Below, piece after piece: positions 10,111 to 21,505 of a DNA stretch of 64,000 nt; positions within the stretch are counted from its first letter, which is position 1; each line of letters begins with the position of its first letter. The position numbers and the translations under genes were made by a program. The stretch comes from Escherichia coli (GTDB taxonomy: Bacteria > Pseudomonadota > Gammaproteobacteria > Enterobacterales > Enterobacteriaceae), in the NCBI RefSeq assembly GCF_003018235.1, contig NZ_CP027437.1; one strand, 5' to 3'. Below the pieces are notes generated by a model. That model saw only the letters and a program-made list of their open reading frames with translations, was not told the DNA's origin and made no database searches.

Positions 10111-10131
10111 ACTACACCATTAACTACACCG
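10111..10131. repeat. attL core actacaccattaactacaccg
   Basis: Identical to 21485-21505; flanking ~40 bp show imperfect similarity. Confidence 0.7.
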
Positions 10132-10234
10132 TTCGGTGCACTGTATGAAACAACGTGGAACAAATAGACACAAGAAATATATGGGCGGGTAATTTATCTA
10201 TGTGAAAGCGTGCCGACTAATAGGGCGTTAATGT

Positions 10235-10256
10235 CGATATGGGGATCCCCATATCG
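10235..10256. repeat. perfect 22-bp palindrome cgatatggggatccccatatcg
   Basis: Read directly from the sequence. Confidence 0.6.
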
Positions 10257-10284
10257 GGAACCATACCGGAATTTTTGCCAGGTT

Positions 10285-10411
10285 AAATGTTAACCGCTGC
10301 CCTGTTAACATTTTTACCAAAAAGGTAGTTAACATTTTTTGCACGCAACCATATGAATCATAAAGACAAAATCAACAACAACGCTTCATCAGGCAGTTAA
10401 CATGTTAACTA
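10285..10411. repeat. array of four to five GTTAACAT repeats
   Basis: tgttaac at 10288, 10303, 10328 and doubled at 10396-10411; non-coding. Confidence 0.45.
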
Positions 10412-10925
10412 CTACAAAACGGTAATTTTTTCTCTGCGTGAGAGTGGGCGCGGTGTCCGAATTGTTCGTTGTTCGTGGCTAACCGCTCCCCCCCCTATAC
10501 CGGATTTTTTTCCGGTTAATCTTTAATCAGGCTGGTGGGGGTTACATACCCTTGATCACCGTAATGATGATTCAGGTATGCACCTTTCCCCCCGATGGGG
10601 TAAAAGCATCAACCGTAACGGTAATATCTGCCTTGATGGTCTGCGTGGTCATTATGACCATTCAGCCAATGACCTTAATCAGAATTTTTCGCTAAAAAAT
10701 GATGTTGGCCACGTCGTCCGGAAAGCACAAAATCCCGTCGATTTTTAATTAACGGTTAAACCGCCTTTTTGTCACGGTGTGTCACTGGTTGCCACTCACC
10801 GTCACGATGTCCGCTCGCCTGGCTGTAAATTAAACTACGAAAATTTCGTAGTTGTGAGGGACTACAAGTCCCGCGCAAATTTCCCCCGGTCCCCTCAAAT
10901 TGAGGTTGCCGGAAATATCAACCAG

Positions 10926-11219
10926 TTACCGCCGTAACCGCTCCAGCTTCTTCCAGTGGTACGTAATTTTCTCTTTCTCCCGGTACATCTCAACGCGGCG
11001 ATTGTAGGCCAGCATTTCCAGAACGCGGATCCGTATGTCGCGCATATCTACATCGTTAAGCTGGATACCATCACGGCGCATCACCTCAGCAACCACACGC
11101 GCATAATTTTCAGCGGTCACGCTGTCCGGCTGCGTTGCCTGTTCGTCAGCCTGCTGGCTGATTCCTGCAACGCGGTGGATTAATCGCAGTATTTCGGCTT
11201 CTGTCATTGTGCCCCCCAT
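10926..11219 (-). CDS. hypothetical protein next to cos
   Basis: 97 aa ORF MGGTMTEAEILRLIHRVAGISQQ; no family recognised. Confidence 0.45.
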   Translation of the reverse strand: MGGTMTEAEILRLIHRVAGISQQADEQATQPDSVTAENYARVVAEVMRRDGIQLNDVDMRDIRIRVLEMLAYNRRVEMYREKEKITYHWKKLERLRR

Positions 11220-11243
11220 CGTTCTAATCGTCTGGTGTCGTCG

Positions 11244-11313
11244 GGTCCTTCCTGGAATTATGGCCCGTTACGGGGCGGCGACCTCGCGGTTTTTCACTAT
11301 TTATGAGATTTTT
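11244..11313 (+). other. lambda-type cos site (cos-L), plus orientation
   Basis: cgggtccttcc (cosQ-like) then ttacggggcggcgacctcgcgg; 12-nt cosN gggcggcgacct at 11273-11284, as I recall the lambda cohesive end. Confidence 0.7.
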
Positions 11314-11319
11314 TAGGGG

Positions 11320-11472
11320 GTGGTTGTTGTTTAATTGTTTGTCATATCTATTTGATAACTAAGTAAAAATAGAGAGCAATACAACAACCTGATAGTGTTT
11401 TTTGATGCTACAAATAAAAAAAATGCTAATTGAATCAAATAGTTTTACAAAAATACGTGGTTGTTGTATTGC
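11320..11472 (+). repeat. three GGTTGTTGT repeats, middle one inverted, downstream of cos-L
   Basis: gtggttgttgt 11320-11330, caatacaacaacc 11377-11389, cgtggttgttgtattgc 11456-11472, separated by AT-rich spacers. Confidence 0.5.
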
Positions 11473-11521
11473 GTATTTGATGGCGTAACAGAAAGTGATT
11501 TTGAACTTTGCTGTTCTGTGA

Positions 11522-11731
11522 CTACTGATTGTTCCATGCTGGCGCGGCGAACGCTTCGGCATGACGCCCCCCAGCCAGAAAACCAGCCATTTTATTTCGT
11601 GCTTTGCTCACATCTTCCGGTGAGTAGCCGTAAATCTGTAAACCTTCATTGAATCGATGTTCTGTTTCTTCACTTGAGTACTCGTCGCTCTCCGATGAAA
11701 TCAGCCTGGCAACTTCAGTCTGCGTAGCCAC
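11522..11731 (-). CDS. hypothetical small acidic protein downstream of cos-R
   Basis: 69 aa, GTG start with GAGGTGAGG ribosome-binding site; sits where Nu1 sits relative to lambda cos but is not Nu1-like. Confidence 0.4.
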   Translation of the reverse strand: MATQTEVARLISSESDEYSSEETEHRFNEGLQIYGYSPEDVSKARNKMAGFLAGGRHAEAFAAPAWNNQ

Positions 11732-11761
11732 TCCTCACCTCACAATCACGACAAAACCGGT

Positions 11762-11861
11762 CATGTCCGGTTTACATGTCTATTTTTTGCGCATGTCCGG
11801 TTCATGGAAAGCCTATTTTTATATTTTTCATATAGTTAACTTGCAGAGAAACCGGACATGG
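11762..11861 (-). repeat. three AACCGGACATG repeats, one inverted, downstream of cos-R
   Basis: catgtccggtt at 11762-11772 and 11792-11802, aaccggacatg at 11851-11861 (plus-strand reading). Confidence 0.5.
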
Positions 11862-11932
11862 ATCCCGGAAAATTTTCATAAATAGCGAAAAACCGCGAGG
11901 TCGCCGCCCCGTAACGGGTCCATATGCCGGAA
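11860..11932 (-). other. lambda-type cos site (cos-R), minus orientation
   Basis: Minus strand reads ttacgggtcctttccgg ... cgttacggggcggcgacctcgcggtttttcgctatttatgaaaattttccgg; cosN at 11898-11909. Confidence 0.75.
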
Positions 11933-11941
11933 AGGACCCGT

Positions 11942-11964
11942 AAAAAAGCCGGATTTCTCCGGCC
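11942..11964 (-). terminator. intrinsic terminator after the capsid operon
   Basis: Minus strand gccggagaaatccggc hairpin followed by tttttt. Confidence 0.5.
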
Positions 11965-11969
11965 TTGTC

Positions 11970-12383
11970 TCAGATGGTTTTCAGTATGCGATCGATGTCG
12001 CCGTCATCGCCCGGGTTTCTGCCATCGTATGCCATGCCAGCTGATACGGCTTGCGGGCTGTGCATGTCCATAAAGTTTTCAAAGGCTGCGGTAAGCTCTG
12101 GTGCAACCTTCAGGCGTTCCTGCTCTATGGTCATGCTAAGGATGCTTTTAGCCGTACCAACATCGATACAAGGCACGTTTGCCATTGCACGTAACAGCGG
12201 CTGATAGTCGCCAGATTCATCAAGCGCCATAATCGCATCAGAGCGCGGCTTGTCCTTCTCTTCCAGGCTGTTAAGTTGATATACGGCCTCGTAGGTTGAT
12301 AAACCTCTGTCAGCCATTGCCCGCGCTTCGGCCTTAAATTTACTCGCCAGCGGTAGCGTCATGATGCTTTCATTCGTTGCCAT
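11970..12383 (-). CDS. hypothetical protein, last gene of capsid operon
   Basis: 137 aa acidic ORF directly after the decoration gene; no family recognised. Confidence 0.55.
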   Translation of the reverse strand: MATNESIMTLPLASKFKAEARAMADRGLSTYEAVYQLNSLEEKDKPRSDAIMALDESGDYQPLLRAMANVPCIDVGTAKSILSMTIEQERLKVAPELTAAFENFMDMHSPQAVSAGMAYDGRNPGDDGDIDRILKTI

Positions 12384-12395
12384 CGTTACCCCTGC

Positions 12396-12731
12396 TTATC
12401 GCGCCAGCGGCTGAACGGATACGCCAGAACCCGCAAAGGCGGCGCATTTTTTCGCGTCGGTGTCGACGCTCTCAGGCCAGTTTACAGCGGCGATATTGAA
12501 TATCCCCGCCTTGTAGCACTGTGCTGATTTCTGCTTTGACGTGTCCACGGGGTACGACGTCAGGTAAACAGCCTTGCCCGATTCCTGACCATCCCACGGT
12601 TTAAACTCGCCATTGTCCGCCAGCATCAGCGGGGTAAATTCCTGAATAACGCCAGCATCAGCGGCAAAATGTACCAGCGTCGTGGCGACCTGCTGACTGC
12701 CTGCAAATAACTCAATGTATGGAGTGTCCAT
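12396..12731 (-). CDS. head decoration protein, lambda gpD-like
   Basis: 111 aa; TPLMLADNGEFKPWDG ... KAGIF ... WPE ... AKKCAAFAGSGVSV resembles gpD as I recall it. Confidence 0.7.
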   Translation of the reverse strand: MDTPYIELFAGSQQVATTLVHFAADAGVIQEFTPLMLADNGEFKPWDGQESGKAVYLTSYPVDTSKQKSAQCYKAGIFNIAAVNWPESVDTDAKKCAAFAGSGVSVQPLAR

Positions 12732-12742
12732 AGAATTCCCCG

Positions 12743-20228: not shown

Positions 20229-21479
20229 TTATTTTCTTCTGGCTGCTGGTAGTGCGGTTACGTTTTCTTGTGTTCCCGCCAGTATCCCTAACCGCTCCGT
20301 CCACATATCCAGCGCATTGCGTTTAGCATCCAGATAACGGGAATGATTATAAACTCGCTGCATTCCTGGCATCTGGTGGCCTGTAAGCTGCTCCACGACG
20401 TGAGGATCCACGCCTAAATCGTTCAGCATCGTTGTAAAGGTGCGCCGGATGTCATGTAGTGACCAGTGAGGGTGATTTAGCCTCCTGTGCGCTAATCTGC
20501 CGTACTGCGACACGCTTGTTTCCTGTTTCACTTCCCCCAGCAATAAGCCCGTGTTCCTGTTCTGCTCCACCAGCTGCGTGACGAACGGCAGTATTGCTTC
20601 CGGTATGGGCCGGAATATTGCCACCTTCGTTTTGCTGTGTTCTTTCGGCACGGTCCAGAGCATTTCGGTAAAATCCCACTCTCTGATCTCCGATAACCTC
20701 AGTTCTACCGTCCGGCATCCGAACACAATCAGGAGGCGGATTAACGCGATGTAGTAAGGGGAAAATATTTTTTTGTCCAGTGCCTGCAATAATTCGCCCA
20801 GTTCTTTGGTGCTTAAGACACGCTCGCTTATATCCGGTTTTTTCCCAACGTCCGCCACACTCATATCATCAAGAACGTTGCTGATTGCATAGCGCCGCCT
20901 CCTGCAGAACTTAAGCGCCTGTTTGCACGTCTGTAGCAAGAATCCGGCAGTAACAGGCGTTCGCTTTGCCACCTGGTCAAAACAGGCCAGCCAGTGCCGT
21001 AGCTCGCATTTATCCAGCGGCATAGCACCAATGTGCTGTATTACGTGATTATTAAGGCGCTTTTTCAGGGCGGCATAATCCACGCGATTTTCCTTTGCGT
21101 ACGACTCAAGCCAGTAGGTGAGCGCATCGCCAACCGTTACCGGCTTTAACGCTTCCTGTACGGTGTAATTCATTTCATGACGTGGATTTTTCCCCTCTGC
21201 CAGCCATGCGCGACACTGGGCGGCTTTTTCCCTGGCTGATTTCAGGCTCAGATCAGGATAATTTCCCAGCTTAATGCGTTCCGGTGGTGCCCCCCTTCCC
21301 GTTCCGGCCCTGTAAGTGAAATACCAGGTTAAAAGGCCACTGGTTGAATGCCTGACGCTCAGGTTTCCACCGTCATTAAGAAAGGCTGTTTTTTGGGCGG
21401 GTGTGCCGTTGATTTTCCTCAGCTGTGTATCGCTCAGTTTGTTAAGTGCTCTGCTCATAATTTTGATTCCGGTCATCAC
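20229..21479 (-). CDS. int: tyrosine site-specific integrase, P4-type
   Basis: 416 aa; C-terminal LHDIRRTFTTML ... GHQMPGMQRVYNHSRY catalytic region; start 6 bp from attR. Confidence 0.9.
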   Translation of the reverse strand: MMTGIKIMSRALNKLSDTQLRKINGTPAQKTAFLNDGGNLSVRHSTSGLLTWYFTYRAGTGRGAPPERIKLGNYPDLSLKSAREKAAQCRAWLAEGKNPRHEMNYTVQEALKPVTVGDALTYWLESYAKENRVDYAALKKRLNNHVIQHIGAMPLDKCELRHWLACFDQVAKRTPVTAGFLLQTCKQALKFCRRRRYAISNVLDDMSVADVGKKPDISERVLSTKELGELLQALDKKIFSPYYIALIRLLIVFGCRTVELRLSEIREWDFTEMLWTVPKEHSKTKVAIFRPIPEAILPFVTQLVEQNRNTGLLLGEVKQETSVSQYGRLAHRRLNHPHWSLHDIRRTFTTMLNDLGVDPHVVEQLTGHQMPGMQRVYNHSRYLDAKRNALDMWTERLGILAGTQENVTALPAARRK

Positions 21480-21484
21480 AATTA

Positions 21485-21505
21485 ACTACACCATTAACTA
21501 CACCG
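21485..21505. repeat. attR core actacaccattaactacaccg
   Basis: Identical to 10111-10131. Confidence 0.7.

Follow-up and report, generated by a model that had tools for sequence, protein, structure and literature searches.

Two facing lambda-type cos sites with different phage-like cosB modules in an Rpp-less relative of the EcCICFT073 island of Escherichia coli

The 64-kb stretch of Escherichia coli DNA described here (NCBI RefSeq assembly GCF_003018235.1, contig NZ_CP027437.1; hereafter the window) is chromosomal, with the genes iraM, icd, purB, phoP, phoQ and, further on, roxA. It contains a phage-inducible chromosomal island (PICI) that matches EcCICFT073 of strain CFT073 in gene order and chromosomal site and has a 21-bp direct repeat, ACTACACCATTAACTACACCG, at its two ends (10111-10131 and 21485-21505). 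Within this island two cos sites, cos-L and cos-R, face each other, each with the cosQ and cosN of a lambda-type phage and a cosB of its own, and the open reading frame (ORF) between them joins the start of a phage gene for the small terminase subunit (terS, TerS) to part of an rpp gene. Paired cos sites in this family are an already published phenomenon and the core of the finding is a rediscovery; what is new here is a variant within the family that lacks Rpp and carries two cosB modules of apparent phage origin. The coordinates of the features are collected in Table 1.

An earlier sequence-only reading of this DNA had interpreted an imperfect inverted repeat of ~70 bp as two cos sites facing each other, and this is what the alignments show: the arms (11242-11318 and 11864-11940) are 77 nt each and 84% complementary, and cosN nt 1 lies at 11273 on the plus strand for cos-L and at 11909 on the minus strand for cos-R. 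Each arm contains the cosQ sequence GGGTCCT exactly 30 nt 5' of cosN (-30 to -24), which is the lambda spacing, followed by an exact copy of the 12-nt lambda cohesive end GGGCGGCGACCT and, 3' of it, the I2-like sequence CTATTTATGA. Over nt 1-48 from the nick 45/48 positions of cos-R and 39/48 positions of cos-L agree with lambda. Additionally, BLAST matched cos-R to lambda-type phages at 88.8% over 80 nt (E=2e-20) and cos-L to phage 21 at 94.3% over 52 nt (E=1e-12). No third cosN-like site was found anywhere in the 64-kb window. A promoter/terminator scan called cosN terminator-like, but this is an artefact that arises because cosN has a GC-rich dyad with a run of T after it.

Downstream of this shared core each site has, as had also been claimed, a different set of three short repeats with one inverted; it is the middle one. 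Counted from the nick, they lie at nt 50-60, 108-118 and 138-155 in cos-R and at nt 50-58, 109-117 and 187-195 in cos-L, corresponding to lambda R3 (53-64), R2 (109-120) and R1 (154-165). The cos-R repeat AACCGGACATG occurs as three exact copies and one copy with a single mismatch, all inside 11755-11860, where R1 (11762-11772) overlaps an inverted copy at 11755-11765; across the window it was matched 6 times where 1.22 would be expected, a number that none of 100 shuffles reached. The cos-L repeat GGTTGTTGT has three copies in the whole window (0.51 expected), all inside 11322-11467, and exact copies of either repeat are confined to their own cosB across the window. Neither set resembles that of lambda, again as had been stated, as the R core recognised by lambda Nu1, CGTTTCC, is absent from both cosB and the gapped identity of each to lambda cosB is ~55%, the same background as for unrelated cosB types in that comparison. 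The site for integration host factor (IHF) between R3 and R2 is only near-consensus, yet it has a conserved TTGAT core. From these comparisons cos-L and cos-R are lambda-type by architecture and, it appears, not by lambda specificity.

Table 1. Features of the island and of its paired cos sites in the 64-kb window
Feature	Position	Strand	Description
EcCICFT073-family PICI, whole island	10111..21505	-	~11.39 kb, between phoQ and roxA
Conserved 97-aa ORF beside cosQ of cos-L	10926..11219	-	phrog_1561, E=3e-54
cos-L core (cos2 position)	11243..11306	+	cosQ 11243-11249; cosN cohesive end 11273-11284; I2-like CTATTTATGA 11297-11306
cosB of cos-L (type C, putative N15/Monarch specificity)	11320..11475	+	R3 GGTTGTTGT 11322-11330; inverted R2 11381-11389; R1 11459-11467
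IHF-like cores in cos-L cosB	11353-11359; 11435-11441	+	TTGATAA; ATCAAAT
69-aa chimeric ORF	11522..11731	-	9 PhiR12-type terS codons (MATQTEVAR) joined to RppA residues ~78-128, then frameshifted tail
Segment of apparent PhiR12-type phage origin	11705..11876	-	late I2 region, entire cosB, ribosome-binding site, terS codons 1-9
cosB of cos-R (type B)	11750..11862	-	R3 CATGTCCGGTT 11850-11860; inverted R2 11792-11802; R1 11762-11772
cos-R core (cos1 position)	11876..11939	-	cosN cohesive end 11898-11909; cosQ 11933-11939
Last capsid-module gene, 137 aa, ending just upstream of cos-R	11970..12383	-	phrog_1999, E=2e-62
AlpA	19666-19854		PF05930, 5.6e-18
Tyrosine integrase	20229-21479		island gene

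Studies by Fillol-Salom et al. (2018 ISME J, PMC6092414; 2019 Mol Cell, PMC6739421) determined that EcCICFT073 has a cos1 and a cos2 site that are both functional and that combine lambda-/phi80-like cosQ/cosN with unrelated cosB. The gene between them in CFT073 is c1503, which encodes RppA, and the cosB of cos1 is bound by a heterocomplex of island RppA and helper TerS (PMC6739421). The purpose of having two sites was left as a question by the discoverers (PMC6092414, PMC6739421), the review by Murialdo and Feiss (2022) covers cos1 alone and does not mention cos2, and no paper accounting for the second cos was found in the later literature searched. By its length, which falls within the ~10-15 kb of the class, by its flanking repeats and gene content and by its two cos sites flanking rpp sequence, the window island appears to be a Gram-negative cos PICI of the EcCICFT073 type. 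The published cos1 and cos2 sequences and an alignment with CFT073 place cos-R at the cos1 position and cos-L at the cos2 position, with identical cosQ-cosN spacers (CCGGCATATGGACCCGTTACG in cos-R and cos1, GGAATTATGGCCCGTTACG in cos-L and cos2). We refer to the cosB of EcCICFT073 cos1 as type A, to that of cos-R as type B and to that of cos-L as type C.

The sequence of cos-R points to a group of lambdoid phages, PhiR12, that is very frequent among E. coli prophages. It is 93% identical over 206 nt to the site of PhiR12_1, _2, _4 and _5, which in the phages lies between Rz and terS, and its cosB alone is 94% identical to that of PhiR12_1 and 82% identical to that of EcCICFT073 cos2. The phage terS start (GTG GCT ACG CAG ACT GAA GTT GCC AGG) corresponds exactly to the first nine codons of the window ORF. 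The right crossover is at TTGCCAGGC, a 9-bp microhomology common to the phage and rpp, and the left crossover lies between cos nt 24 and 34, the sequence being of the island cos1 kind to about nt 24 and of the phage kind from about nt 34. Judging from these junctions, the island cosB and with it the 5' half of rpp gave way to ~170 bp (11705-11876) from the cos-terS region of a PhiR12-type phage. As the cos-R cosB is closer to PhiR12 than to EcCICFT073 cos2, the type B module has apparently entered islands at least two times. The type B cosB is present in 820 of 5426 complete E. coli genomes; with the type B cosB-terS module as query, 1140 of the 5426 give a coverage of 80% or higher. A search of the literature found no paper on the PhiR12 phages.

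The rest of the inter-cos ORF is derived from rpp. A tblastn search with RppA gave a match of 92% over residues 78-128, beyond which the tail is altered through a 1-nt deletion, and the product has 69 aa instead of 144-146 aa. The full-length Rpp of a sister island matches RppC (PDB 6hlk) at 2.4e-31; a PHROG search of the 69-aa ORF matched no family. Proteins classed as Rpp have 139-154 aa and an N-terminal winged helix-turn-helix domain that binds DNA, located at residues 1-64 (Fillol-Salom et al.; Murialdo and Feiss), and the window ORF has neither this length nor this domain. The cos1-type cosB that is recognised by Rpp and TerS together has GGTGACACCACCACC at R3, a position occupied by CCATGTCCGGTT in cos-R and by GGTTGTTGT in cos-L. 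Since both the Rpp-dependent cosB and the DNA-binding domain of Rpp have been replaced by phage DNA, redirection by Rpp is presumably not available in the window island. The chimera retains the segment with F121, targeted as a dimerisation residue in the 2019 study, according to which both interaction surfaces are needed (PMC6739421). This is a rare variant; among the 5426 complete genomes it occurs in GB089 and MFDS1022581 only, and it is also present in the IMG/VR contig L036.

The type C cosB of cos-L was sought in phages by several routes. No sequenced phage with it was found in INPHARED, where matches were limited to cosQ/cosN, and a tblastn search with type C TerS found no phage having that DNA-binding domain besides the distant N15 group. 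The type C motif GGTTGTTGTTTAATTGTTTG was present in 65 IMG/VR contigs, of which ~40 are phage loci and the remainder islands. In the phage loci a lambda-type cosN lies 50 nt upstream of the motif and the terS start 179 nt downstream, and the encoded TerS is 93% identical to that of the UTAK-3 prophage and the large subunit, TerL, 97% identical to PhiR12 TerL. UTAK-3 itself had been considered as the type C exemplar and was dropped, as its cosN is different and its TerL frameshifted; the IMG/VR loci with lambda cosN serve better. Over residues 1-45 type C TerS and N15 gp1 are ~87% identical and have the same recognition helix, while PhiR12 TerS aligns with N15 gp1 only from residue 59. Compared with each other, the PhiR12 and type C TerS proteins have near-identical C-terminal halves and have diverged in their first ~50 residues.

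This link to N15 extends to the DNA. A study by Feiss et al. (PLoS One 2015; PMC4669245) defined N15 R3 (bp 48-59, GAGGTTGTTGTT) experimentally as a TerS site, and terminases with the specificity of lambda or 21 did not package cosB-N15 DNA, with yields of ~1e-4. Monarch-type prophages were described in the same study as having the N15 R sequence within a tripartite cosB with an IHF site. The R core of cos-L equals N15 nt 50-58, and cos-L has this core (GGTTGTTGTT, at nt 50-58 from its own nick), an inverted R2, an R1 and an IHF-like core, and thus the features of the N15/Monarch class as described in that paper. R2 and R1 do not vary at all among the 32 distinct copies of type C that were compared, taken from both phages and islands, whereas the remaining columns from nt 70 onward average 0.70; R3 was left out of this comparison, as the search pattern had selected on it. 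The two IHF-like cores are likewise conserved across the 32 copies. In two IMG/VR islands with rpp (L024, L042) a type C cosB follows a non-lambda cosN, GGGGGTAGCCATACGC, which resembles the cosN of UTAK-3-type prophages (GGGGGTCGGTGGACGC); islands seem from this to track the cosN families of helpers besides their cosB.

Both cosB modules of the window also occur in real phages, where the TerS proteins encoded next to them differ in the DNA-binding domain and the TerL proteins are near-identical. The two phage groups share the same cosN and differ in cosB and in the DNA-binding domain of TerS. The reading that we favour, and that we consider probable, is that cos-L and cos-R are the cos1/cos2 pair of a PICI that is packaged independently of Rpp by helpers of two specificities, PhiR12-type at cos-R and N15/Monarch-type at cos-L. 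The sequence-only reading had likewise proposed packaging by terminases of two small-subunit specificities, and the comparisons support this, with the cos-R cosB 94% identical to the PhiR12 type and the cos-L cosB apparently carrying the N15/Monarch R sequence. It was right about the structure and in calling the sites lambda-type, and it had missed that the cos-L repeat is that of N15 R3, as the alignment it had itself suggested does bring out, that the pair corresponds to the published cos1/cos2 of EcCICFT073-type islands (PMC6092414, PMC6739421), and that the inter-cos ORF consists of a truncated rpp joined to the start of a phage terS.

From the sequence identities, the architecture and the chimera, we infer how cleavage, helper specificity and polarity would follow. 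Each site would offer a lambda-type cosQ-cosN-I2 as the substrate of helper TerL and a distinct cosB as the docking site of helper TerS. The TerS of whichever helper is active would dock at the matching cosB, the adjoining cosN would be nicked, and packaging would proceed away from cosQ; a PhiR12-type helper would dock at cos-R and package towards decreasing coordinates, and an N15/Monarch-type helper would dock at cos-L and package towards increasing coordinates. The opposite site would be met cosB first and cosQ last, so that no termination would be expected there, and packaging would stop at a later copy of the initiating cos, about four island units on. Four units of 11.39 kb make 45.6 kb, which is compatible with a lambda-sized head. 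Termination is independent of cosB (PMC4669245), and for this reason a pair in direct orientation would be unstable; packaging would start at one site and stop at the other, the 0.6-kb interval would be lost or duplicated, and the pair would collapse. The facing orientation would keep both sites stable and would tolerate inversion, since every flip regenerates two complete sites.

The other members of the family bear on this reading and on its rivals. By combination of cosB the 25 island loci examined comprise CFT073 (A and B, with rpp), ten loci with A, C and rpp, the window, GB089 and L036 with B, C and an rpp fragment, and, with B and C and without rpp, ten loci plus S1-CAM-02-A. Besides such an island, S1-CAM-02-A harbours a prophage; its cosB is 92% identical to the type B cosB of the island, and its cos-terS does not differ from that of PhiR12. 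Contigs of a type C phage and an island from the same isolate were sought in IMG/VR and none were found, all genome identifiers being different. One alternative is that exchange between island and helper at the conserved cosN let a second cos and cosB hitch-hike, so that one of the two sites is a non-functional relic. The recombination scars are consistent with this, as the terS(1-9)::rpp chimera is joined at a 9-bp microhomology, type B cosB was gained at least two times and the cosB combinations are mosaic. A relic would not be expected, however, to remain as complete as these sites are: cosQ at -30, cosN, I2 and all three R repeats are intact at both sites in every island examined, R2 and R1 stay invariant whereas the spacers drift, and the pair outlasts complete loss of rpp. 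We regard a relic as improbable.

A variant of the cohesive end, GGGCGTCGACCT, is present in both sites of L007 (3476 +, 4012 -) and in both sites of L019 (9534 +, 10305 -), and it also occurs in the phage contigs L052 and L053. Its presence in both arms points to exchange between them; the arms may be evolving in concert, or sequence may have been swapped with phages repeatedly.

The interior of the pair is found in two orientations. In 4/10 of the rpp-less islands with B and C (L009, L016, L066, L069) the ~512-bp inter-cosN interior, equivalent to 11285-11897 of the window, is exactly inverted, being 98% identical to the reverse complement of that of L013, with the cosQ-side flanks unchanged. 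L013, L033, L040, L044, L055 and L007 have the other orientation. It could be thought that the inverted pair is mainly an invertible cassette, the flip of which regulates rpp or its neighbours or swaps which cosB faces which flank, and a cut at both cosN would in principle give fragment ends with identical overhangs that could re-anneal either way. We consider a cassette very improbable indeed. The flipped segment has no intact gene in the islands that show the inversion, two complete cos sites are present in either orientation and the inversion looks neutral, and the window variant has been seen in a single orientation in 3/3 copies; moreover, any inverted repeat of 77 bp would be expected to give rise to inversion as a by-product. 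On the two-specificity reading, re-annealing after a double cut would be one possible route of inversion, and homologous recombination between the arms would be an alternative one.

Experiments with EcCICFT073 bear on a further rival, that one site is a decoy which titrates or misdirects helper terminase, or at which a second cut damages concatemers and lowers helper yield. In EcCICFT073 loss of cos1 lowers transfer of the island, loss of cos2 raises it (slightly for transfer mediated by phi80 and significantly for transfer mediated by lambda), and loss of both abolishes it (PMC6092414); cos2 is thus costly in that setting, and interference with the packaging of helpers is a known property of PICIs (PMC6739421). 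Each of the cloned sites, cos2 alone included, nevertheless confers transfer by lambda and phi80, and abolition needs deletion of both (PMC6092414). In the window both cosB modules are full tripartite phage copies with invariant R sites, which is beyond the needs of a sink, and both sites are kept in islands that lack rpp. A decoy is therefore unlikely in our judgement.

Several observations weigh against packaging of the window island by helpers of two specificities. Although a convergent pair with cosB inward was found in 25/25 island loci, these belong to one family and were collected by homology or by the type C motif, so that the convergence is not independent evidence for each locus. The cos-L cosB is 80% identical, and hence 20% different, to the phage type C copy in L011. 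In the inducing prophage of CFT073 itself cosB and TerS are of the phage-21 type and not of type B, and therefore the type B cosB of CFT073 cos2 is left unexplained by the known resident helper. The published tests of cos2 used lambda and phi80 only, and there it was dispensable and its deletion raised lambda-mediated transfer (PMC6092414). Finally, a helper prophage was looked for in the 64-kb window and rejected: there is no terS, terL or third cosN, and the left edge is iraM and not a CFT073-like prophage integrase at icd.

In its general form the two-specificity reading would hold that the second cos of these islands is a copy of the cos of another helper group (PhiR12 or N15/Monarch), that one sub-lineage has become an Rpp-free cosmid of two specificities and of either polarity, and that the inter-cos flip is harmless and possibly results from terminase cuts; on this our judgement is evenly balanced. 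If true, helper range would be widened in two ways, by Rpp redirection of lambda/phi80/21-type TerS and by cos mimicry of other lambdoid groups, and some islands, the window island included, would depend on mimicry alone. This matters for forecasting which prophages mobilise PICI-borne virulence or defence genes, for PICI-based delivery vehicles, in which the choice of cosB would set the helper, and for how packaging-specificity modules swap between phages and satellites at a conserved cosN. The assignment of the two cosB to PhiR12-type and N15/Monarch-type phages is a testable answer to a question of modest scope.

Besides the integrase and AlpA the island encodes a single-stranded DNA-binding protein (SSB) and an Icd-like domain, and the annotation of sister islands adds a helicase/primase and DUF4222; genes for terminase, lysis or tail were not found in the island. 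The mechanically called 504-aa ORF at 18099-19613 (-) has its Icd-like domain only at residues 455-498, and in this region of sister islands separate small Icd-like and ash-family genes are annotated. The conserved 97-aa ORF is in the same place in CFT073, GB089 and 2014C-3338 and lies beside the cosQ of cos-L in every family island examined. On the other side of the pair, the island has its own capsid-like module (11970-14004, -) made up of a 68-aa ORF, a major capsid protein (351 aa), a decoration protein (111 aa) and the 137-aa protein, which weakly matches the C-terminus of a head maturation protease (phrog_53) and is annotated as a head-tail connector in some records. EcCICFT073, in contrast, is reportedly packaged in phage-sized capsids. 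The stop codon of the gene for the 137-aa protein is directly followed, a little upstream of the cos-R cosQ, by a hairpin, GCCGGA-GAAA-TCCGGC followed by TTTTTT (11941-11968, -), which is kept in CFT073, GB089 and 2014C-3338 and looks like an intrinsic terminator, though the consensus scan did not list it. In CFT073 (L003) cos1 and the cos of the neighbouring icd prophage (7558 and 44744) are co-oriented at a distance of 37.2 kb, and phoPQ, purB and icd lie in this interval; from these positions cos-to-cos packaging of that stretch, which is near the lower limit of a lambda-type head, may be possible.

Among known systems, lambda cos is similar in that cosQ lies at the same -30 position, the 12-nt cohesive end is identical and the I2 region is conserved; there are three R-like repeats at similar distances with the middle one inverted, and a small gene starts ~180-190 nt from the nick. 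It differs in that the R sequences of the island are unrelated to the CGTTTCC core, cosB identity is at background level, and the island has two facing copies with no terminase genes following. With PhiR12-type lambdoid phages and O157-type prophages (GenBank PV340549-PV340554) cos-R has cosQ, cosN, cosB, the ribosome-binding site and the first nine terS codons in common, but in the phages a complete 169-aa TerS and TerL follow cosB, whereas the window frame continues into the 3' half of rpp. N15 has a single R3 and a cosN that differs from that of lambda at two positions, whereas cos-L has lambda cosN, and cos-L differs from both N15 and Monarch in lying on a satellite without terS. Two satellites can be likened by description. 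The helper-embedded PICI 11capE (Mageeney et al. 2023) shares a stretch of its cos region with its helper (258 bp at 90%), but a single helper-like cos region is described there and no pair is stated. SaPIbov4 has two putative cos sites according to the 2018 paper (PMC6092414), but it is staphylococcal and its packaging requires an HNH endonuclease.

EcCICFT073 is the closest system. It belongs to the same family, occupies the same phoQ-adjacent site and has a convergent pair, between the capsid module and a terminal 93-97-aa ORF, in which lambda-type cosQ/cosN are joined to non-lambda cosB. Its cos1 has the Rpp-dependent type A cosB, which carries GGTGACACCACCACC as its R3 and extends into the 5' end of rppA, and it encodes a full 144-aa RppA, whereas the window has only a 69-aa fragment with the C-terminal part of Rpp. 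Type B is found at cos2 in EcCICFT073 and, with its CATGTCCGG repeats, at the cos1 position in the window. A simple inversion of the EcCICFT073 arrangement is ruled out as the source of this difference, as the 3' half of rpp keeps its orientation and the type B module of the window bears a phage terS start that is lacking in EcCICFT073 cos2. The cos2 position of the window is instead taken by type C, with GGTTGTTGT, which it has in common with strain 2014C-3338 and many other islands.

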